Origin: an uncultured virus (IMG/VR IMGVR_UViG_3300020603_000009)
Taxonomy: Duplodnaviria; Heunggongvirae; Uroviricota; Caudoviricetes
DNA: 64,000 nucleotides
IMG/VR virus record: IMGVR_UViG_3300020603_000009
Reading direction: 5' to 3' (one strand)
Below the pieces are notes generated by a model, which saw only the letters and a program-made list of their open reading frames with translations, had not been told where the DNA came from and did not search any database. The translations under genes and the position numbers were made by a program. Shown here piece by piece: positions 4,972-15,877 of the stretch (position 1 is the stretch's first letter; each line of letters opens with the position of its first letter).

Positions 4972-5823
4972 TTAATATTTTTTCTTATCTGCTTCTGTTG
5001 ATTCACCAAACAACTCTTTTTCCCTTGGTATTTTTACTTCAACAATAGTTTCTGAAGTAATAATCTTTGGCTTTTGTGAATTTGCTCCCGCTCCCAATAA
5101 ATATCCTAACACATTTATCGATAATTCTGTCGTAAACATACGATTATCTTGATCTAACTTTGTCATGTTTCCACCATTTTTAAATGATGAATCTTTTTCA
5201 AAAAACGCCTCATACCTATGCTGTTCTTTGCTTATCATAAAGTGATTAATACCGGCTGTATAGGTCATAAATGGTTGAATTATTTCATTTATTTGCTGCT
5301 GATATTCTGTATTAACTGTTATTGTGTATTTAACATCAATATAAACTGGTAATGGAATTTTTGTAATTTCATATACAACTTTTTTATTTTTTTCTTTTAC
5401 ATTATATTGAACTGTTTTTCTGTAATTGTTATTTTTTGCGTAATTATTTGATTTTTCTTGAGATATCAGCTTTGTTACGGTTACGACTCCACCGCGAAAA
5501 TCATCTGGCGGCACATTAGCATAAAAAGTTCCTTTTTTTGTTAAACTTTTTGTTATATTATCTCTTTGTAGTGTAATTGCTGGAAGTATAAAATTTCCAT
5601 TTACATCTCTTAATGTTCTATCGTTTTTTATTTGATGTGCTCTTTCACCGGCAACCCAGATAACAGGTGTTTTTTTCCAACCACGATTTGTATTTGCGTG
5701 AATATTCATAGTTTTATCAAGCCATTCATAAACAGCTAAATCGATTGTTTCTATTGTTGATGGTTCTATTGAAACTTGATTTGTTTCAAGACCTCTTCTT
5801 TCGTATTCTGTTTTATCGCTCAT
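4972..5823 (-). CDS. Tail completion / sheath stabiliser (gp15-like)
   Basis: Lies between neck and sheath genes; LPAITLQR and PVYIDVKYTITV...QQINEII pattern. Confidence 0.55.
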   Translation of the reverse strand: MSDKTEYERRGLETNQVSIEPSTIETIDLAVYEWLDKTMNIHANTNRGWKKTPVIWVAGERAHQIKNDRTLRDVNGNFILPAITLQRDNITKSLTKKGTFYANVPPDDFRGGVVTVTKLISQEKSNNYAKNNNYRKTVQYNVKEKNKKVVYEITKIPLPVYIDVKYTITVNTEYQQQINEIIQPFMTYTAGINHFMISKEQHRYEAFFEKDSSFKNGGNMTKLDQDNRMFTTELSINVLGYLLGAGANSQKPKIITSETIVEVKIPREKELFGESTEADKKKY

Positions 5824-5835
5824 TTTTCAATCCCA

Positions 5836-6654
5836 TCATGGTAATGTAAAGAGAGGACTTTCGATCCAAACTCCACCTTCATTAAAAAAAAATTTATCTG
5901 GTTGGTCAAAATTACCATATATTTCATCTTCATCAATTTCTGACAAATAAACTATACAACCTTTATAGTTTTGTGGATTATTTGCATAATCTAAAAATTG
6001 TGAACGCTTTGAACTTGTTCTTTTGCCTGATATTATTTGTATTTTTCCACCGCAAACAGCTTCAATTGGCGTGTTATTGATAATTTCTTCTAAACCACTT
6101 TGATCTTGAGTTTCGTTTATTCTTATTTGTTCTCTTATTTGTAGTAATTCTACCGGCTCATTAAAGAAACCTTGTCTAACGCGATTACAACTTGTTTGTA
6201 TTTCCATTTTATGTTGAACTTGGCCGAATAATTTTCTTGGTTCTGCTAGTTTTACAATTTCATAAAAATTTAATCCATAAAAAACAACATCACCTTCACG
6301 AATATATAAATCTTGATCTTCAGTTAGTCTTCTTTTATGAAAATTAATTGTTATTTTGGAGCTTTTATCAAGACCATACACTTCTGTTGTTGTTTGTTCT
6401 TCATCAATTTTTACTAATGCTTTTATTATTATCGGTCTTAAAAAAGTTTTATTTATTGCTTCACCATAAAGAGGATGAAAATCACTATTTTTTACATTTA
6501 AAGGAAAATAAATAATAGTTTGACCTATAACTCGCTCAATTAATTCATCATTAATTTGCTTTGTTAAATCTCTTTCTTTCTTCCCCAAAAACATTGGAGA
6601 AGGTGGCTGTTCTGGTTGGGTCCATTTTTTTTGATCTACTTTCTTTTTACCCAT
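5836..6654 (-). CDS. Neck / head closure protein (gp14-like) with an extra C-terminal domain
   Basis: ELIERVIGQTIIYF...HPLYGEA, REGDVV...YEI motifs; follows the gp13-like gene. Confidence 0.65.
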   Translation of the reverse strand: MGKKKVDQKKWTQPEQPPSPMFLGKKERDLTKQINDELIERVIGQTIIYFPLNVKNSDFHPLYGEAINKTFLRPIIIKALVKIDEEQTTTEVYGLDKSSKITINFHKRRLTEDQDLYIREGDVVFYGLNFYEIVKLAEPRKLFGQVQHKMEIQTSCNRVRQGFFNEPVELLQIREQIRINETQDQSGLEEIINNTPIEAVCGGKIQIISGKRTSSKRSQFLDYANNPQNYKGCIVYLSEIDEDEIYGNFDQPDKFFFNEGGVWIESPLFTLP

Positions 6655-6658
6655 TTAA

Positions 6659-7975
6659 TCATCCTACGAATATAACATTTGGAACTGCAGCAAGAACTTT
6701 ATTAGCATTATCAGAAAGAGCTGTGCGTTTTTCAGCAAGAGTGTTATAATCTGTTTCTTCCAGTATTTTTACAAGCTCTTCTTTAAGAGCGTCTTTTTCT
6801 TCTTTGCTTTGTGATCTTAAATCCGCACCATTTAGCGTAACGCTTTCACCTGGAATTGGAATTGTTTGAAATTTACTGCGAATTTCAGCAAGCATGCCTT
6901 TTGCTACAGCAAGCGCATAACGACGAATCCAATGTTTGCCGATTGCATTAATATTTTCAAAAGGAATATTTGAGAAAGGAAGAGTGTTTATATTATTAAC
7001 ACCACCAATTCTGGCATCTTTTCCACTTAATTCTGTATATGACGAACCGGATAATATTCCTATGCCAACATTTGCTCCATTACCAGCACCAACACTAAAT
7101 TCAAACCAAAATGTTCTTATATCGGTTGAATCGGGAATAGGAAAAATTCTTAATTTGTTATTTTTAATCTCATAAGAATAATGAGAGATACGAGTATAAA
7201 TATTATCTTCATATGCCATAGCTTGAAGTTTATTATGCCACGCTGGAATAACTTCAAAAGTACTGTCGTCAGCATACTGACCGTATGTTGAAAGATTTCC
7301 TACGGCATTTAAACCGCCATAGTAGCCATAAAATCTCCACATTGCACGAGGAGACTTATAATAAACTTTTCTAACAGTTATTCTTGAACCTGGATTAACT
7401 TTACCATACAAAACAGAAGTAGAATTAGCAGCAGAACTACTAACTATATTTTGTAAATCATAATCTTGTTGATTTGGTTGAGCTTCAAAAGAAGCTGAAT
7501 ATATATCTATTTTTCCACCAACGCCAGCTTCATGTGAAAATGCATCAGCAGCATCACGAACAGCTGTTATATCGTACATTGGATATGTTAAATTAAGTGG
7601 ACCAGAAGAACTAACAAGATTATAAAGAGCACTTCCACTTTTTATTTCACCATCACTATTAAATGTTCCGGTTGGAGAACCAAGCATGCTACCAAGTGAA
7701 TTCTTTGCTTGATGAAGATTAACAAGATAAGAATAAGTTAATACAGCATCTTCATATGCCGCATAAGCTTGACCTTCTGTTATTTCTATATCAAGAACAT
7801 CGCCACCAATCATTTTATAGATATAAGCAACTTGATCTACAGCGCCACTTATAAAATCTGTGCTGTTCGCATAAATACCAAGAGGCAAACTAGAAGCAAC
7901 ATTAGAAAATGTTCCAGTTGAAGGCAATACAATTGCGCTTGTTTGACTTTTAGGTGTTAATACAGGAACAGACAT
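6659..7975 (-). CDS. Neck / head-tail adaptor (gp13-like)
   Basis: GGDVLDIEIT, WIRRYALAVAKGMLAEIRSKF, IPGESVTLNG motifs. Confidence 0.7.
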   Translation of the reverse strand: MSVPVLTPKSQTSAIVLPSTGTFSNVASSLPLGIYANSTDFISGAVDQVAYIYKMIGGDVLDIEITEGQAYAAYEDAVLTYSYLVNLHQAKNSLGSMLGSPTGTFNSDGEIKSGSALYNLVSSSGPLNLTYPMYDITAVRDAADAFSHEAGVGGKIDIYSASFEAQPNQQDYDLQNIVSSSAANSTSVLYGKVNPGSRITVRKVYYKSPRAMWRFYGYYGGLNAVGNLSTYGQYADDSTFEVIPAWHNKLQAMAYEDNIYTRISHYSYEIKNNKLRIFPIPDSTDIRTFWFEFSVGAGNGANVGIGILSGSSYTELSGKDARIGGVNNINTLPFSNIPFENINAIGKHWIRRYALAVAKGMLAEIRSKFQTIPIPGESVTLNGADLRSQSKEEKDALKEELVKILEETDYNTLAEKRTALSDNANKVLAAVPNVIFVG

Positions 7976-8034
7976 TTATATAGTGCCTCCATATATGGCT
8001 ACTTTATAAATAGTATTAATATTGATATAAAAGA

Positions 8035-8060
8035 AAACCCACCATATTTCGGGTTGGTTT
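8035..8060 (-). terminator. Imperfect intrinsic terminator after the LamG gene
   Basis: Coding strand AAACCAACCCGAAATATGGTGGGTTTTCTTTT. Confidence 0.5.
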
Positions 8061-8075
8061 ATAAAATAATTTTAT

Positions 8076-8810
8076 TTATCTTCCGAATTTAGTTTTAAAG
8101 GCATCATAATTTTGCTCTATCTCGGCAAGAGACAATTCTTTATCATAAAATAGTATATTTGAAATGTGACCATCAAAAGGCGAACCGACACCAACATTAT
8201 AAGAAAAACCTATTTTCATAGTGTTGTTAAGAAGCCAAAGTGATGGTGAACCCATCGTTGAGCCGGCGCCGGTATTTTGTAATTTGTTTAAAAATATTTT
8301 AATATTTTGATTAAATCTTCCAACACCTGGTGCTGCTTGACCACCATTAGAAGTTACAACAATATTGTGCCAACTGTCATCATCAACTCTTCCTTCATTT
8401 GTTGTTGATGTGGAAATATAAAAGGAACCCCCACCCGTTCCATTATGAGGATTGTTTATTATGTTTGCTAATACCGCACCATTTTGTACACTTAATTGAA
8501 AACCGTGCGTTAAATATGGTAAGCTATTTAAATAATTTGTCATAATAACACGATTTTTACTAGCATTATTATAAACCATTTTTACCCACATAGATACAGT
8601 AAAAGCATTTTGAGTTATTGTATTTAATGAACTGGTAAAATCGGCATAATCATTTATACCATCAAAATAAAATGAATCTGCACCAGACGAACTCGATACA
8701 GCTGCGCCATTATAAAGGTTTATAAAAGATCCGGCAGATGAAGGTTGCAAAAAAACCCTTAAACTTGAAGTTATGTGCGAAATCGGTTCTGGTTCATTAT
8801 AAAAAAACAT
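8076..8810 (-). CDS. LamG / concanavalin A-like domain virion protein
   Basis: FDGINDY, FTVSMWVK, DDSWHNIVVT, FDGHISNILFYDKELSLAEIEQNY; SD AGGAG. Confidence 0.85.
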   Translation of the reverse strand: MFFYNEPEPISHITSSLRVFLQPSSAGSFINLYNGAAVSSSSGADSFYFDGINDYADFTSSLNTITQNAFTVSMWVKMVYNNASKNRVIMTNYLNSLPYLTHGFQLSVQNGAVLANIINNPHNGTGGGSFYISTSTTNEGRVDDDSWHNIVVTSNGGQAAPGVGRFNQNIKIFLNKLQNTGAGSTMGSPSLWLLNNTMKIGFSYNVGVGSPFDGHISNILFYDKELSLAEIEQNYDAFKTKFGR

Positions 8811-8860
8811 AATAAATTCTCCTGAATTTAAAAGACAATATAAATAGTTTAAAATTTTTA

Positions 8861-8888
8861 AAAGAGAAAACCCGCCATTTCTGGCGGG
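8861..8888 (-). terminator. Intrinsic terminator after the major capsid gene
   Basis: CCCGCCA-GAAA-TGGCGGG stem-loop followed by TTTTCTCTTTT. Confidence 0.85.
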
Positions 8889-8912
8889 CTTCTTATTAAC
8901 TAACCGTTACGA

Positions 8913-10598
8913 TCAGCCTAATAGGTCTTGTACAACGACAAGGCCATATAGGTCTGGACGTACCATCTTCTTGGCGTAGCGAGTCATAACACCCTTACGT
9001 GGTACGAAATCTTCAGTACCAAAGATGGTTGGTGTAACTTGTAGTGGGACATATGGAGCATATACGAATCCACTTTCAAGGAAACTATTGCCCTTACGAC
9101 CTACGAGAACAAGATTACGTGGGAAGTATGGATCAACGAATACATCCCATTTCTTGCTGAGTGAGCCAGCTTTAACAGCACCAACTGTACCCTTGGCATC
9201 ATCATGGACAACGTTTGCACGGAATCCAGTGGTGAATTCAAGTACGTTAGCAACTTCTGGACCGCAAACAACGAAGTTTGCACCACCACGAAGTGTCTTA
9301 CGGTGGATAGCGGCACTTACATCGTTGATTGTTTCAACGAGTGTTTCGTACCACATACTAACATTACCGGTGAAGTCGGCGCCACCTGGGTTTAGACCCA
9401 TATCGCCGGCAATTGGAGCACCGGTTGTACGATTTAAGAATTTACCTGGACGACGTGACCAGTATAGTGTTGCAGCGGTTGCACCACGAACAAGTTCACC
9501 AAGCATTTCTTGATCGATTTCAAGACCAATCTGTTCTGAGAGAATTGAAGTTAATTCAACTTCTGCATCGAGATTGTGGTAAGCGTTGAGATCTTGACCG
9601 AGTTCTGGTGTCCATTTTGCTTTAAGCTTGCGGCTCTTGGCAGTTACGGCAACACTGTCGACCTTGATATCAATTTCTGGCATATTTGCTTCACCTTCGA
9701 AGGTTACGAGTTGAGCAAATATAGCACCTTGAGTATCAGCAACATTACTGATTTCATCAGCAATAGGCCAGAATAGGGTGCGTGAACCAGCGTTGTCATC
9801 TAGATCTGTTGGCGAAACAGTTGTACTAGCAACAACTAGACGAACGTGTGTATAAGTATCGCCACCAACATCAACAAGACCGGTTGAGTCTGTTTTTGCT
9901 GTTAAACGACGAACAAGTGAACCGCTTGGTAGAGTACCACTTATAGCAATAAGACTACTTCTATCAAGACGAGTTAGAACACTGGTTGGAACAACGAATA
10001 CTGCTACATTTGTAGAACCGCTGACAAAATCAGCATCAAACTTACAAAGTTTATCAAGCTGACCACCAGCGCCGAATGTACCACTATCAACTAGAGTTAG
10101 TACAGCATCGCCTGAACCGGTTGGTAATGAATAACCTTGGTTTAATGCGCGTAGTGAATTTTCAGCATTTAGACCACCGAGGTTTACACCGCCAGTGATT
10201 TCTGAACCTACAACGCCACCACCGAATAGTGAACTACCACTTACAGCACCTGAACGAGTACGATCAAATTTAAAGTCAAGGAAGAAGATAAGGCCGCTTG
10301 GTAAACTCATTGGCTGTACGCTGACGAGTTCGTTAGCAATTAAGCTACCGAAAACACGGCGGACGATTGGGAATGCAACCGCAGCGAAACCTTCTACTTC
10401 ACCTCCTGACATTGTGTTCGCTTCACGTAATAGTTCTTGTGCTTGATTTTCTAAGAGACGAGCCATGGTTGCTTTAGTGCGATCATCGCCCATACCTTCT
10501 AATAGACCTGTATCTGACCATTTATTTAATAAAGCGCCGCCTTCTTTTTCAAGGTCGCGCTTAACGATACCTTCTGTTAATTTCTGAATAACTGACAT
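8913..10598 (-). CDS. Major capsid protein (T4 gp23-like)
   Basis: LVSVQPMSLPSGLIFFLDF, AKSRKLKAKWTPELGQDLNAYH, EIDQEML, YAPYVPL, GVMTRYA; SD AGGAG. Confidence 0.95.
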   Translation of the reverse strand: MSVIQKLTEGIVKRDLEKEGGALLNKWSDTGLLEGMGDDRTKATMARLLENQAQELLREANTMSGGEVEGFAAVAFPIVRRVFGSLIANELVSVQPMSLPSGLIFFLDFKFDRTRSGAVSGSSLFGGGVVGSEITGGVNLGGLNAENSLRALNQGYSLPTGSGDAVLTLVDSGTFGAGGQLDKLCKFDADFVSGSTNVAVFVVPTSVLTRLDRSSLIAISGTLPSGSLVRRLTAKTDSTGLVDVGGDTYTHVRLVVASTTVSPTDLDDNAGSRTLFWPIADEISNVADTQGAIFAQLVTFEGEANMPEIDIKVDSVAVTAKSRKLKAKWTPELGQDLNAYHNLDAEVELTSILSEQIGLEIDQEMLGELVRGATAATLYWSRRPGKFLNRTTGAPIAGDMGLNPGGADFTGNVSMWYETLVETINDVSAAIHRKTLRGGANFVVCGPEVANVLEFTTGFRANVVHDDAKGTVGAVKAGSLSKKWDVFVDPYFPRNLVLVGRKGNSFLESGFVYAPYVPLQVTPTIFGTEDFVPRKGVMTRYAKKMVRPDLYGLVVVQDLLG

Positions 10599-10627
10599 TT
10601 TGATAACTCCTGTGAATATATTTGGTA

Positions 10628-11887
10628 TTATTTAATACCGGCTAATTTTAACCAACGATCTTTATTTGGATCGTGTAGTTGTTCTGTTTGTTTGTGAGGC
10701 AGACGGAATGAACTCTTTTTACTAATCGCTTCATTCAATGATTTTGGTGAACGTTCTTTTTCAGCTGTGCCACCCACTGAATTGATTAGTGTTTCATATA
10801 CTGTTTTTGCTTCACCTACAGAATCAGCCTTTGAAATAGCTTCGACAATATGTGTTTTTTGTCGCTCATTCAAGGAGGCGCTTTTCAAGATCTGATTTTG
10901 ATAGAAAAGTTTGGCATTTAAAGCGTTAACTTCTTCAAGTTTTTTAAATGCTTCTGACATTTCTTCTATTGTGGAAGAGAATCTTTTATTTTCTTCCAAA
11001 AGTTTTTGAATTTGTGAATCTTTCTTTTCAACCAGTTTAATTGTATTCTGGTGTTCTTGTAGCAGTTTGGTTGATGTGCTCATCAATTCCTTAACTGTTG
11101 ATTCATTTACTTGTTTTTTTGTTTTTTTCTTTTTACCACCAGCGATACGAGCAGCAACAACATCGCCATAAGTTATTTTGTCTCGTGGTTCAGTCATGGC
11201 AGCTAATTTCTTTTGTTTAGCTGATAGTTTTTTCTTTTTCTTTTTTGCTTCGTCTAATTTTGATTCTTCATCTTCATCTTCGTCATCTGATTCTTCTTCG
11301 TCATCTGATTCTTCTTCGTCATCTGATTCTTCTTCGTCATCTGATTCTTCTTCGTCTTCGTCGTCTTCGTCTGATTCTTCATCTTCATCAGATTCTTCTT
11401 CTAAAAGTATTTCATCGATTTCTATACTTTCTTGAAGTGAAGCACCGGGAGATGGTTGATTCTGTAAGCCAGCTGGTGTTGGCATCATTTCAGAAGTATC
11501 TTCCTCTTCTTCTGCTTCTTTGCCGATCATTAAATCATCGGTTAGTTTTTGTAAATCTATTTCTACATCAATTACTTCATCATCATCGGGACAAGGACAA
11601 AGTTTTTCACCATCAGTTGCTGCTAATGGAATATCTTTTGCTGCACCGGCAACAAAAGCTTTATCAGTTGGATCATCGGGAGCGCCACCAAAATCAGTTG
11701 GTCCAGCAAGAGCGCCAGTTTGTGATGGATCTTCACCCGGTTTATCTTGTTCTAACAATTTTTCAACTGCTTCTTTGATCTGTGGAGCAAATTTTTCAAC
11801 AAGAGATGCTTGTGCACTTTTATAGGCTGAATCTCTTAAGGCTTGTGCGTCGACTATTGCTTGTTCTAATAGCTTTGAACTACTCAT
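10628..11887 (-). CDS. Prohead scaffolding/core protein (gp22-like)
   Basis: Acidic coiled-coil protein directly upstream of the MCP. Start moved to ATG 11887 (MSSSKLLEQAIVDA), which has SD AGGAG; ends RWLKLAGIK. Confidence 0.7.
   Translation of the reverse strand: MSSSKLLEQAIVDAQALRDSAYKSAQASLVEKFAPQIKEAVEKLLEQDKPGEDPSQTGALAGPTDFGGAPDDPTDKAFVAGAAKDIPLAATDGEKLCPCPDDDEVIDVEIDLQKLTDDLMIGKEAEEEEDTSEMMPTPAGLQNQPSPGASLQESIEIDEILLEEESDEDEESDEDDEDEEESDDEEESDDEEESDDEEESDDEDEDEESKLDEAKKKKKKLSAKQKKLAAMTEPRDKITYGDVVAARIAGGKKKKTKKQVNESTVKELMSTSTKLLQEHQNTIKLVEKKDSQIQKLLEENKRFSSTIEEMSEAFKKLEEVNALNAKLFYQNQILKSASLNERQKTHIVEAISKADSVGEAKTVYETLINSVGGTAEKERSPKSLNEAISKKSSFRLPHKQTEQLHDPNKDRWLKLAGIK
11262..11402. 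repeat. 18-bp tandem repeat encoding (EESDDE)n
   Basis: Unit TTCTTCGTCATCTGATTC is repeated with degenerate copies on both sides. Confidence 0.85.
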
Positions 11888-11965
11888 TAAAAATACTCCT
11901 GAAAATACACTTTTACTCAATTAAATAGTTTTATTTTTATCAACATACCACAAATATGCTGGAAA

Positions 11966-12517
11966 CTATAATTTCTTAATAAAACATTTAATTAAATTAC
12001 TATCTCCATCACTATCTTCTAGTGCTTGACCTATTACTTTTCCAAATAAATCGCGTTTTGTTCCAAACATAGTTCGCATTTTTGCTGCTTTTCCATGACC
12101 GCATTTTTCACTTGTAACGACCCAATCACCAGATTTTATTCTTCCAGTAATAAGCAGATATTCAGCACCCAATATTATTGGCTGATCTTTGCCTTTTAAT
12201 GTAGCACCAACAACACGGTGATCTTCTTCACGAACGCAAGGAACAGCTTTACCATTTTCCCACACAACAACTGTACCGGTTGGATATTCACCCAATAATT
12301 CAGTAGTTAAACCGGTTTCAAATATAGCACCAACAGTTGTTTGTTGAGAATATACATCAGCCCAGCGATTTGTTTCTGAACCAATCGTTCTTGACGCATC
12401 ACCTTCTGGTATTAATGTTCCAGTTATTTGTACTGAACCGCTAAAACTTACTGTTCCATCATTTAATAATTTGTGTATATGAGTGCTTCCACTTACTACA
12501 CTTAAACCTTTAGCCAT
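11966..12517 (-). CDS. Short fibre-associated protein with a peptidase G2 / intramolecular-chaperone-like C-terminal domain
   Basis: LIPEGDASRTIGSETNRWADVY fibre motif, then GTVVV...RVVG...IKSGDWVVTS...GKVIGQALE. Confidence 0.55.
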   Translation of the reverse strand: MAKGLSVVSGSTHIHKLLNDGTVSFSGSVQITGTLIPEGDASRTIGSETNRWADVYSQQTTVGAIFETGLTTELLGEYPTGTVVVWENGKAVPCVREEDHRVVGATLKGKDQPIILGAEYLLITGRIKSGDWVVTSEKCGHGKAAKMRTMFGTKRDLFGKVIGQALEDSDGDSNLIKCFIKKL

Positions 12518-12595
12518 TTTTTACTCGCTTCTTCAATAAATATGGAGCAATATTGCGTTTTAACCTAATAAATAGACATTTACAATAAAAACAAT

Positions 12596-12625
12596 AAAAA
12601 AACCGGCACCCCGAAGGATGCCGGT
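12596..12625 (-). terminator. Intrinsic terminator with UUCG tetraloop
   Basis: ACCGGCATCC-TTCG-GGGTGCCGGT followed by TTTTTT. Confidence 0.9.
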
Positions 12626-12651
12626 CTATAGTTTAATTAAAAACTATTATA

Positions 12652-14394
12652 TCATTCACCAAAGAATGGGCTTGGGAACCATTCATCACCTTCGCAGAAG
12701 TACCACTTATTAGCTTGGTCGAATCCAACTGCTTGTGCAGCTGCATGATTGGCAGCTTTTAAGTAGAAGAATCTACCATTATAAGTTGCTGGAGCAGCAG
12801 CCATGGTACTTAACAAAGCAGCATCAGCTGATACCGCAGCATCAAGAACGTTATCAACACCCTTGAATGAACCAACGCCACCAACAGTTAAGCTGTTAGC
12901 AATACTTACATCAGAAGCTAGACCAACTGTGAATACATCACCGTCTTTGCTTACTGAAGTTTCATTAACAACTGAAGAAACGCTGAAGTTATCAAGACGA
13001 GTTGATAATACAGCGTCAGCACTTGCGCGATCTGAGACTTCAGTTGCAAGAGCGGTTGATAGTGAAGCGTCAGCACTTGCGCGATCTGAGACTTCAGTTG
13101 CAAGAGCAGTGCTCAATGATGCATCGGCACTTGCACGATCTGAAACTTCAGTTGCAAGAGCGGTACTCAATGATGCATCACCACTTGCACGATCTGAAAC
13201 TTCAGTTGCAAGAGCAGTTGACAACGAAGCATCACCGCTTACACGATTTGAAACTTCAGCTGATACCGCAGTTGATGTTGCTGTGCTATAGCTAGCAATT
13301 GTACTTAATACACTTGTAGCAAAGTTTGGATCATCGCCAAGAGCTGCAGCCAATTCATTGAGTGTATCAAGTAATTCTGGAGCGTTATCGACTAGATCTG
13401 CAATTGCTTGATCTGTATAAGTTTCAGCAGCTGTTGATAGCGAAGCAACAGCACTTGCACGATCTGAGACTTCATTTGCAAGAGCAGTTGATAACGAAGC
13501 ATCACCACTTGCACGATCTGAGACTTCATTTGCAAGAGCAGTTGATAGTGAGGCGTCAGCACTTGCACGATCTGAAACTTCAGTTGCAAGAGCAGTTGAT
13601 AGTGAGGCGTCAGCACTTGCACGATCTGAAACTTCAGTTGCAAGAGCAGTTGATAGTGAGGCGTCAGCACTTGCACGATCTGAAACTTCAGTTGCAAGAC
13701 CGGTGCTTAATGATGCATCGGCACTTGCACGATCTGAAACTTCAGTTGCAAGACCGGTGCTTAATGAAGCGTCAGCACTTGCACGATCTGAAACTTCAGT
13801 TGCAAGAGCGGTTGATAGTGAAGCGTCAGCACTTGCGCGATCTGAAACTTCAGTTGCAAGAGCAGTTGATAGCGAAGCGTCACCAGTTACACGGCTTGAA
13901 ATTTCAGCTGACAAATCAACTGAAAGTGCATCTATATCACTAGCTATTGTACTAAAGAAGCTTGGATCATTATTGATAGCATCTGCTAATTCTTTTAGAG
14001 TATCTAAACTACTACCAACACCATCTAGAAGATTAGAAACTTCAGTACTGATTAGTGATTCTAATGAACTAACAGCTGATGATAAATTATTTGATGTATT
14101 AGCTGCTAAAGTGCTTAATACAGCTTGAACATCACTTTCACCTGCAACTGCTGGATTTACAACAACGTTTGAAGCAGCAAGTTTATCAACAGTAACTACG
14201 CCATTTTGATTAACTTGAAAAACGCGACCATCTACACTACCAGAACCAGCACCTGGTAAATCAACGGTAAGTGTACCGCTGATACTCATATTAACTGGTT
14301 TGTTTACACCAAACGCTACTTGACCATTTTCCATGATTTTAGCTACAACAGAGCTAGAACCTGAAATAACCGCAAAACCTTTTTGTTTTGACAT
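12652..14394 (-). CDS. Coiled-coil fibre (whisker/head-fibre-like) with 18-aa repeats
   Basis: Two LDTLxELAxAxxxDPxF fibre motifs, 9+5 repeats of ATEVSDRASADASLSTAL, small aromatic C-terminal domain; SD AGGAG. Confidence 0.75.
   Translation of the reverse strand: MSKQKGFAVISGSSSVVAKIMENGQVAFGVNKPVNMSISGTLTVDLPGAGSGSVDGRVFQVNQNGVVTVDKLAASNVVVNPAVAGESDVQAVLSTLAANTSNNLSSAVSSLESLISTEVSNLLDGVGSSLDTLKELADAINNDPSFFSTIASDIDALSVDLSAEISSRVTGDASLSTALATEVSDRASADASLSTALATEVSDRASADASLSTGLATEVSDRASADASLSTGLATEVSDRASADASLSTALATEVSDRASADASLSTALATEVSDRASADASLSTALANEVSDRASGDASLSTALANEVSDRASAVASLSTAAETYTDQAIADLVDNAPELLDTLNELAAALGDDPNFATSVLSTIASYSTATSTAVSAEVSNRVSGDASLSTALATEVSDRASGDASLSTALATEVSDRASADASLSTALATEVSDRASADASLSTALATEVSDRASADAVLSTRLDNFSVSSVVNETSVSKDGDVFTVGLASDVSIANSLTVGGVGSFKGVDNVLDAAVSADAALLSTMAAAPATYNGRFFYLKAANHAAAQAVGFDQANKWYFCEGDEWFPSPFFGE
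12993..13912. repeat. 54-bp tandem repeats in two blocks
   Basis: Unit GCACTTGCACGATCTGAAACTTCAGTTGCAAGAGCAGTTGATAGTGAGGCGTCA with synonymous variation; in frame with the fibre gene. Confidence 0.9.
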
Positions 14395-14520: not shown

Positions 14521-15630
14521 TTATTTATTTTCTAGTGCCGATATTCTTGTTTTTAAATTTTCATTTTCTTGTTTTAATTCTTTTACAGCTTCTATAAGAA
14601 TTGAAACAATTTCCGCATATCTTACACTTTTATAATCTTTTATTCCATTTAAGTAAACAAGTTCTGGATATATTTGTTCTACTTCTTGTGCTATTAATCC
14701 AATTTGATTTTTATTTTGTTCTTCTTCTGAAATAATAAATTCTTGATCGGTTGTATTATCCCATTTAAAATTAACACCTCTTAATTGAGATACAGAATTT
14801 AAAGCACCAGTTAAAGTTGTTATATTTTTCTTTAATCTTTGATCTGATGTTGCTGCTGTTATATCTCCGGTAGAAGATCTTCCAATAGCAGTATTTGTTC
14901 CAGCAACAAGAGTTCTTATTCTTAATGTTCCGCTTATATCTAATGTTTGAGCGGGAGAAGAGATTCCAATACCAACGCCACTATTTGTTATCCGCATTCT
15001 TTCTACGGCATTTGTTGAAAAACCTATTTGATCCGCTGTATCTCTAAATATTCCACAATTATTATCTCCATTCCAAGTTAGGGTTGGCGCTGCAGCTGTT
15101 CCGCCCAAATTAGACATTTGTATTTGAGCGCCACTAACTTGATTTACAAATCTAACAGCTTCTGCTCCATTTGTTGCTATACCTAATTGATTTATAGCTG
15201 CTCGATAGATTCCAGTATCAATACCCGAAGAACCAAAGCCATATGATACAGCAGAAACACTACCAATACTGGCTTGATAAGTATTTGAAACCAATGTTGA
15301 ACCGGTTATAGTTGTAAATCTTGCAGTTGAGCCAGATAAAATATTGGTTGTATAATTATAAGTGAGATTAGCTGATCCACTAAAAGTGCTGCCGCTATTA
15401 AATTGTATAGTTGTATCAGAACCTCCCGGTGGAGTAAGACCACCGGCAGAAGGTGGTAATCCAACAAAACTTGAAGCAGACAACGTTGTTACGTTTATTG
15501 TTGAAAAACTTGCTGCTGTTCCAGATAAACTATCTCCAACAATTACATTTCCGGAAATAGACAAACTGCCGGGAACACTTATCCCAGCAGAACTTGAAAT
15601 TTGTCCGTTTTTAACAATTATTGGAGCCAT
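14521..15630 (-). CDS. Fibre protein with a C-terminal intramolecular chaperone (peptidase S74 type)
   Basis: GGSDTTIQFN, ERMRITNSGVGIG, TSDQRLKKNI, GLIAQEVEQIYPELV, terminal coiled coil. Confidence 0.85.
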   Translation of the reverse strand: MAPIIVKNGQISSSAGISVPGSLSISGNVIVGDSLSGTAASFSTINVTTLSASSFVGLPPSAGGLTPPGGSDTTIQFNSGSTFSGSANLTYNYTTNILSGSTARFTTITGSTLVSNTYQASIGSVSAVSYGFGSSGIDTGIYRAAINQLGIATNGAEAVRFVNQVSGAQIQMSNLGGTAAAPTLTWNGDNNCGIFRDTADQIGFSTNAVERMRITNSGVGIGISSPAQTLDISGTLRIRTLVAGTNTAIGRSSTGDITAATSDQRLKKNITTLTGALNSVSQLRGVNFKWDNTTDQEFIISEEEQNKNQIGLIAQEVEQIYPELVYLNGIKDYKSVRYAEIVSILIEAVKELKQENENLKTRISALENK

Positions 15631-15673: not shown

Positions 15674-15877
15674 TTATTCTTCTTTTGGAGTTGCTGCTCT
15701 TTCTTTTTCCAATGCTCTTGCTTTTGCTCTACGCTTTGTATGTTCTGCTTGTGAAGGTTTTACGTAATATCTACGATCAAAACAATCTTCAACAATTCTC
15801 ATCTTTTTTGTTTTTTTGAGAAACTTTTTTATCATCTTCTCAACGTTGCCGTCAACTTCATCTAAACTTACTTTCAT
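15674..15877 (-). CDS. rpsU: Phage-encoded ribosomal protein bS21
   Basis: 67 aa, basic; NVEKMIKKFLKK...RRYYVKPS...KRRAK matches the bS21 pattern; SD GAGG. Confidence 0.8.
   Translation of the reverse strand: MKVSLDEVDGNVEKMIKKFLKKTKKMRIVEDCFDRRYYVKPSQAEHTKRRAKARALEKERAATPKEE

Follow-up and report, generated by a model that had tools for sequence, protein, structure and literature searches.

The phage neck fibers described in the sources cited here dock on the adaptor ring. In phage T4, trimers of fibritin (Wac) bind domain III of gp13 via their N-terminal domain and the C-terminal region of gp14 hooks gp15, according to the account of the neck in PMC12929629; in cyanophage A-1(L), the fiber protein gp82 docks non-covalently on the 15-mer gp5 (PMC10966104). 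The latter source models the A-1(L) neck fiber gp82-gp81-gp80 as a bead chain of initiator, extender and terminator proteins, in which N-terminal hairpins plug onto the preceding C-terminal trimer. For the branched receptor-binding proteins of KP32-type Klebsiella phages, PMC13352976 shows binding: a domain of one trimeric fiber is the socket for the conserved 29-residue N-terminal peptide of the next. Here we analyze a stretch of 64,000 nucleotides (herein the window) from the uncultured virus IMGVR_UViG_3300020603_000009, whose full record has 72,276 bases. A gp14-like head-closure protein (herein the neck protein) and a fiber encoded in the window end in the same ~70-residue domain, which we call the “knob” and which may act as a socket for an N-terminal fiber motif. 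In the open-license literature we found no description of a head-closure protein with a trimer domain fused to it.

The window holds the structural region of a T4-like myophage: PHROG and Pfam matches name the sheath, the tube, a gp23-type capsid protein, a prohead protease and a gp13-like adaptor. Cultured relatives are distant: the best match to the neck protein has 29% identity over 46%, and capsid matches reach 47 to 51%. The locus resembles T4 (gp14 with gp13 and fibritin whiskers; 9MKB) in its gp14 core fold, the order gp13-gp14-(gp15)-sheath and its neck-associated fibers; unlike in T4, gp14 here itself bears a predicted trimer domain or, in relatives, a whole fiber. As in KP32-type systems, the dependent fibers carry a conserved N-terminal peptide; the KP32-type socket, as described in the source, is T4 gp10-like, internal and located on a tail-anchored protein, whereas here the fold is another, the first socket would lie on the neck ring and binding is proposed. 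The likeness to A-1(L) is architectural only; the motif profile has no similarity to A-1(L) gp81, and a BLASTP comparison of gp82 with gp81 gave no meaningful match.

A C-terminal domain common to the neck protein and a fiber

The features concerned are as follows.

5836..6654 (-): gp14-like head-closure (stopper) protein, 272 residues, with a C-terminal knob domain (open reading frame [ORF]; Foldseek; PHROG matches of homologs)
6160..6630 (-): gp14 core, residues 9 through 165, the entire protein in most relatives (VIA fold alignment)
6055..6159 (-): variable 35-residue linker with two predicted helices (model; least conserved part in the comparison of nonsynonymous to synonymous change, pN/pS)
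5839..6054 (-): neck copy of the ~70-residue knob, neck residues 201 through 272, a predicted homotrimer and proposed socket (family alignment, models, pN/pS)
12652..14394 (-): 580-residue fiber comprising N-terminal motif, shaft of 18-residue repeats, short β-rich stretch and knob (ORF; PHROG tail-fiber matches over the shaft)
14263..14394 (-): fiber N-terminal motif of the K-G-x-A-V-x-S-G type, the proposed plug (alignment; distribution)
13002..13881 (-): fiber shaft of 18-residue repeats, limits approximate (12 repeat units located)
12655..12870 (-): fiber copy of the knob, fiber residues 509 through 580 (alignment with the neck copy)
11966..12517 (-): 183-residue protein with the N-terminal motif at 12386-12517 and no knob, proposed chain tip (ORF, motif alignment, gene order)

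The original prediction held that the neck protein and the fiber end in one foldon-like oligomerization module of ~50 residues. Both ORFs and both of the C-terminal segments that it quoted are present where it placed them, and alignment establishes the homology of the two C-termini: they align locally with a BLOSUM62 score of 73 (16 identities in 44 aligned pairs), which none of 5000 shuffles reaches (60-residue tails, mean 21.4, maximum 54; full proteins, mean 31.4, maximum 53). Compared with the 843 six-frame segments of the window, either tail has only the other as a non-self match above threshold (E = 4.8e-4 and 7.7e-5), and no third copy was found in the 72,276-base record beyond those of neck and fiber. 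The shared module is thus real but longer than first proposed, ~70 residues once an extra N-terminal strand and helix are included. Over this length the two copies are identical at 19 of 72 positions, 10 of which lie within the predicted trimer interface. The fiber shaft that precedes one copy is likely a coiled coil, presumably of three chains; its hydropathy periodicity gave no informative signal.

The knob is a family-wide domain (95 members) that has no curated family. Neither the individual segments nor the 95-member profile match a usable Pfam or PHROG family (best PHROG E = 0.003 in 6 members each), and the profile matches no PDB sequence at E ≤ 10. The model of the domain (predicted local distance difference test score [pLDDT] 92.7) consists of a strand, a helix and three strands. 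Thirteen positions are conserved in at least 70% of the members, and eight of them lie in the predicted trimer interface; together with the 10 interface identities between the neck and fiber copies, this means that the residues first noticed are mostly those of the trimer interface and the core. A loop at approximately positions 39 through 48 is variable.

That the knob is an oligomerization domain, as originally proposed, agrees with structure prediction. Three copies of the neck knob are modeled as a homotrimer with a score of 0.87, against 0.00 for the best of three controls. In the calibration of this score, 20 of 30 solved one-chain pairs and 1 of 23 single chains reach the mark; three copies and the custom alignment used here lie outside it, and part of the 0.87 may stem from likeness to solved trimers. 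Separate runs share at least 97% of contacts, with a partner pLDDT of at least 87. The knob is therefore predicted to self-trimerize.

The epithet “foldon-like” was not supported: no fibritin or foldon family appears among the Pfam and PHROG matches of the 95 members, the PDB sequence search was empty, and size and topology differ. The T4 fibritin foldon is a hairpin of ~27 residues. The knob, with ~70 residues, a helix and four strands, resembles it in function, as a small C-terminal element predicted to trimerize after a coiled-coil shaft. In fold, the modeled knob weakly resembles the trimer knobs of collagen XV/XVIII (multiplexin) and their phage look-alikes, the N terminus of Mtd (1YU0) and the N-domain of K1 lyase (7W1C), all small strand-helix-strand trimer knobs; the Pfam families PTL_trimer (PF26696) and Mtd_N (PF18454) belong to these look-alikes. 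The top VIA matches overall have Z values of 4.2 to 4.6 with root-mean-square deviations (rmsd) of 2.5 to 3.3 over 48 to 51 aligned residues, and include collagen XVIII (9bnb; Z 4.3, rmsd 3.3, 51 aligned) and collagen XV (3n3f; Z 4.2, rmsd 2.5, 48 aligned) in the top ranks. The N termini of Mtd, K1 lyase and hyaluronidase follow at Z 2.1 to 2.7 (Mtd 1yu0, Z 2.7, rmsd 3.1, 43 aligned). Foldon, T4 gp10 and the A-1(L) proteins are not named among the VIA rows, which is no exclusion; VIA does not align chains of fewer than 30 residues. ESM Atlas returned leads at 0.87 and 0.90 to PTL_trimer (PF26696), with low shared-feature counts; Pfam scans gave no PTL_trimer match, in a copy of Pfam from which this family seems to be missing. 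A likeness to collagen XVIII is also reported for the K1 lyase N-domain in PMC8822698. Unlike these collagen- and Mtd-type knobs, the domain has no PDB or Pfam sequence match; its loop is longer, its C-terminal S-x-F tail is conserved, and it is mostly C-terminal and fused to a neck ring protein.

The designation of the neck protein as gp14-like was confirmed by its fold. The window protein has no PHROG or Pfam match; 6 of 20 homologs weakly match PHROG head closure Hc2 (phrog_679; best E = 0.0038). With the full-length model (pLDDT 80.9), the top Foldseek match is the T4 portal-neck-tail structure (9mkb; E = 5.8e-8), and among 22 matches at E ≤ 0.001 all those listed are phage neck structures. 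VIA aligns residues ~25 through 175 with stopper proteins (Chi neck, Z 11.2, rmsd 2.9, 111 aligned; T4 gp14 9lu4, Z 9.2, rmsd 4.1, 128 aligned). The modeled neck core thus has the T4 gp14 fold. The gene order of the window, gp13 - gp14 - gp15-position gene - sheath, recurs in the maps of relatives; the flanking genes in the window are the following.

6659..7975 (-): gp13-like head-tail adaptor, upstream neighbor of the neck gene (phrog_211, E 1e-11)
4972..5823 (-): gene at the gp15 (tail terminator) position, its identity taken from position only (conserved place between gp14 and sheath; no PHROG match and no informative Pfam match)

A proposed chain of plugs and sockets

Our tentative reading, to which we give nearly an even chance, is that the shared domain is a three-chain knob acting as a socket for the N-terminal motif of the fibers, the plug. 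Through its N-terminal motif, the 580-residue fiber would be anchored to the knob of the gp14 ring, and the knob at the fiber tip would in turn hold the 183-residue tip protein through its own motif, giving a chain in the order neck, 580-residue fiber, 183-residue tip. Taking the hexameric ring of gp14 from T4 (PMC12929629), six gp14 chains would yield two knobs, or six where a downstream free knob gene supplies the other chains. More broadly, and as a generalization that we rate as plausible though short of an even chance, a large group of aquatic T4-like phages would build modular neck fiber chains with one plug-and-socket pair: the head-closure ring as first socket, interchangeable plug-shaft-socket extenders, minimal beads, plug-only tips, and free knob chains that bridge the six-fold ring and the three-fold fibers.

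The motif is common to the fibers and to the knob-less 183-residue protein (11966-12517), and occurs in 33 of 35 intact knob-bearing proteins encoded upstream of the scaffold gene; the other two have a divergent look-alike, and 17 more proteins are cut. Three of 50 records picked by the gp14 core alone have the full motif, and each of the three has a neck knob; the 44 records that have no knob at all lack the full motif. The other three knob-bearing records of this set are fragments of 7 to 11 kb, likewise lacking it. Of 39 records picked by the knob, 24 have the motif, and 14 of the other 15 lack the fiber start or the slot according to the gene maps (G035 was left out). Of 15 distinct short genes with the motif only, 14 come directly after a knob-ending fiber gene, the 15th having no upstream DNA in its locus. 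In G006, a knob-bearing gp14 gene is directly followed by a motif-only fiber gene, and in G064 and G026, whose fibers (3,233 and 943 residues) have no knob according to the whole records and gene maps, the neck knob and a motif-bearing fiber are retained. Nearly minimal proteins of motif plus knob also exist, with spacers of 15 to 19 residues in 6 of 54 non-redundant chains. Together, the patterns of neck, fiber and short genes fit an initiator (gp14 plus knob), an extender (motif plus knob) and a tip (motif only). Motif and knob of the same chain are correlated (Mantel r 0.42), which is not counted as support because it is expected from shared ancestry.

Selection on the neck copy points the same way. 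Purifying selection acts on the neck knob even in its bare form, with pN/pS of 0.05 to 0.19 (6 relatives) against 0.09 to 0.33 for the core (5 relatives; the core row of L003, 93% identical when colinear, was left out of the table, its register having been mis-set by the anchor motif). The domain is conserved on the neck protein although there is no shaft for it to fold.

Gene maps place knobs in two slots only: on fibers encoded upstream of the scaffold gene, and between gp13 and the gp15-position gene. This restriction holds in two complete 190-kb genomes with five and six knob copies. In 76 loci the gp13, gp15-position and scaffold genes are all present. Knobs occur in both slots in 32 of these loci, in the fiber slot only in none, in the neck slot only in two (G064 and G026) and in neither slot in 18 for which at least 2.5 kb upstream is visible; the other 24 contain too little upstream DNA. 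The 32 represent at most 21 distinct gp13 sequences. The 105 knob-bearing proteins from the database comprise 37 gp14 proteins, 36 that begin with the motif, six with the motif directly after an internal Met, nine from two other families of the neck slot and 17 seeming fragments or short ORFs.

Two of these classes call for separate comment. In the six (P0040, P0050, P0068, P0074, P0077 and P0088), the motif lies ~540 to 580 residues inside the protein, which hints at an in-frame internal start. The two other neck-slot families are defined by unannotated N-terminal domains (L094:8864-10300 (+), L025:9622-11688 (+) and L211:9943-13524 (+)); both match a single ORF of L164 and also occur without knobs, and one has a knob where gp14 has none, possibly as a second anchor.

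The gp14 core itself occurs in several layouts. Counted over every fetched locus, and thus redundantly, 75 cores stand alone or without a knob, 59 have one knob, 11 are doubled without a knob, 16 are doubled with two knobs and 6 are cut. In 80 loci chosen solely by the gp14 core (the best 80 of at least 544 confirmed loci), a neck-slot knob is present in 15 and missing from 64, with one cut. The gp14 family is common, its patterns matching, by estimate, about 3,900 stored stretches. Free knob genes of ~80 residues directly follow gp14 in some relatives (L012:3025-3270 (+) and its relatives) and are missing from the window; they have approximately three origins and come and go among close relatives. 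We rejected the idea that gp14 is read through its stop codon into a following free knob gene, as frames vary among genomes and the junctions resemble ordinary coupled starts.

Several points weigh against the plug-and-socket reading. It does not account for how a six-chain ring would carry three-chain knobs on a 35-residue linker, and the docking site of the motif could just as well be another virion protein of this clade. In K1 lyase the like fold is described, in PMC8822698, as a putative particle-binding N-terminal domain and not a socket. Three knob-less records match the second half of the motif profile, weakly and partially. On the gp13 tree (128 rows, 103 different), the presence of the knob needs only two changes, possibly one, so all of the co-occurrence amounts to one or two events and may reflect shared ancestry; absences are weak, as most records are fragments. 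As to the fold, Foldseek found no match to the knob model in PDB or BFVD at E ≤ 0.001, and the VIA values of Z 4 to 4.6 lie below the level that VIA calls common background.

If the plug-and-socket reading is true, a trimer-forming socket on a six-fold head-closure protein would be another route of fiber attachment, with a six-to-three symmetry problem, and a plug of ~45 residues with a self-trimerizing socket of ~70 residues would make a handy coupling pair for building protein fibers.

Alternative readings of the knob

Possible, though we consider it doubtful, is that the knob is a plain trimerization cap, a foldon in function and not in family; on gp14 it would be a whisker stump fused to the neck, and the motif-bearing fibers would attach elsewhere. 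The last knob lies within 15 residues of the C terminus in 128 of 143 distinct ORFs. Long gp14 forms have fiber-type repeats between core and knobs, and knob copies group by slot and not by genome (8 label changes, against 86 when shuffled). An hhalign profile match to a short trimer-type motif, read as PTL-like and found in the knob-bearing proteins themselves (probability 88, E = 3.1e-6, 26 columns), also suits a cap, and the co-occurrence with the motif is explicable by the one or two events noted above. Left unexplained are the selection on the shaft-less neck knob, as strong as that on the core, the approximately three origins of free knob genes, and the motif-only tip genes behind knob-ending fibers in 14 of 14 cases where the upstream gene is visible. 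Were the cap reading alone to hold, an uncurated trimerization domain family on a neck protein would still stand.

The original prediction had the fibers dock on the neck by hetero-oligomerization, neck and fiber copies mixing in one oligomer (for example, one plus two) and so tying the fiber tip to the neck. Some link between neck copy and fibers is retained, given the gene patterns; docking by mixing is disfavored, and we consider it improbable. The interface residues are shared between the two copies (10 of the 19 identities), and no locus has a fiber knob without a neck-slot knob, against 32 with both. However, G064 and G026 have a neck knob and no fiber knob; neck-slot and fiber copies are no more similar within a genome than between genomes (0.300 versus 0.302, p = 0.66, 27 contigs); up to 2,669 further residues follow some knobs; and a three-chain shaft would itself unite three knob chains. 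The same similarity values gave no sign of within-genome homogenization of the neck and fiber copies, a candidate that we rejected.

In other phages, Ig-like domains have been shuffled onto virion proteins. By analogy, the knob might be an accessory surface-binding domain spread over several virion proteins, a very unlikely reading in our judgment. In favor are up to six knob copies per genome on unrelated carriers and the variable loop; yet knobs are confined to two gene slots even in the two complete 190-kb genomes, and conservation is concentrated in the trimer interface and core.

Finally, we give hardly any weight to a stacking of knob trimers on knob trimers, by which the fiber tip or free knob beads would dock on the neck knob without a plug. 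In its favor are tandem knob pairs, in long gp14 and neighboring proteins, and split layouts that include a free knob gene; but free knobs near the clade of the window nest with neck copies rather than with the second tandem copy, close relatives differ in whether they have them, and neck-only genomes exist.

Further features of gp14 relatives and of the window

Some relatives have gp14 proteins with two tandem cores and 450 to 2,100 fiber-like residues, with or without two terminal knobs (L072:9734-12202 (-), L041:6533-10309 (+) and L094:1418-8854 (+)). An internal translation start in these long proteins was considered and rejected: a Met precedes the fiber part in one subgroup only, and there is no clear ribosome-binding site. 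In the split layout of L036:3210-4793 (+), three consecutive genes encode bare gp14, gp14 plus knob and a free knob. The order gp13, gp15-like, gp14 is found in L157, L162 and L174, whose gp14 bears a different C-terminal extension of ~140 residues; the gp14 C terminus therefore accepts other add-ons too. In L143, L171 and L178, two consecutive gp15-like genes and then a large ORF without annotation precede the sheath gene. Where linker and knob join, gp14 homologs have one or two recurrent cysteines (window 6046-6069, -), and disulfide cross-links are possible there.

In the window, a LamG-like lectin gene (8076-8810 (-); Pfam E = 1.5e-12) is inserted between the capsid and gp13 genes and is missing from most relatives. 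A second fiber, with an S74 chaperone domain, is encoded at 14521-15630 (-); in some knob-less relatives, S74 fibers occupy the slot of the motif-bearing fibers of the window. A gene for the ribosomal protein bS21 at 15674-15877 (-) (Pfam E = 2.5e-7) shares its strand with the structural genes; PMC9723584 describes bS21 on the reverse strand in the clades that it covers.

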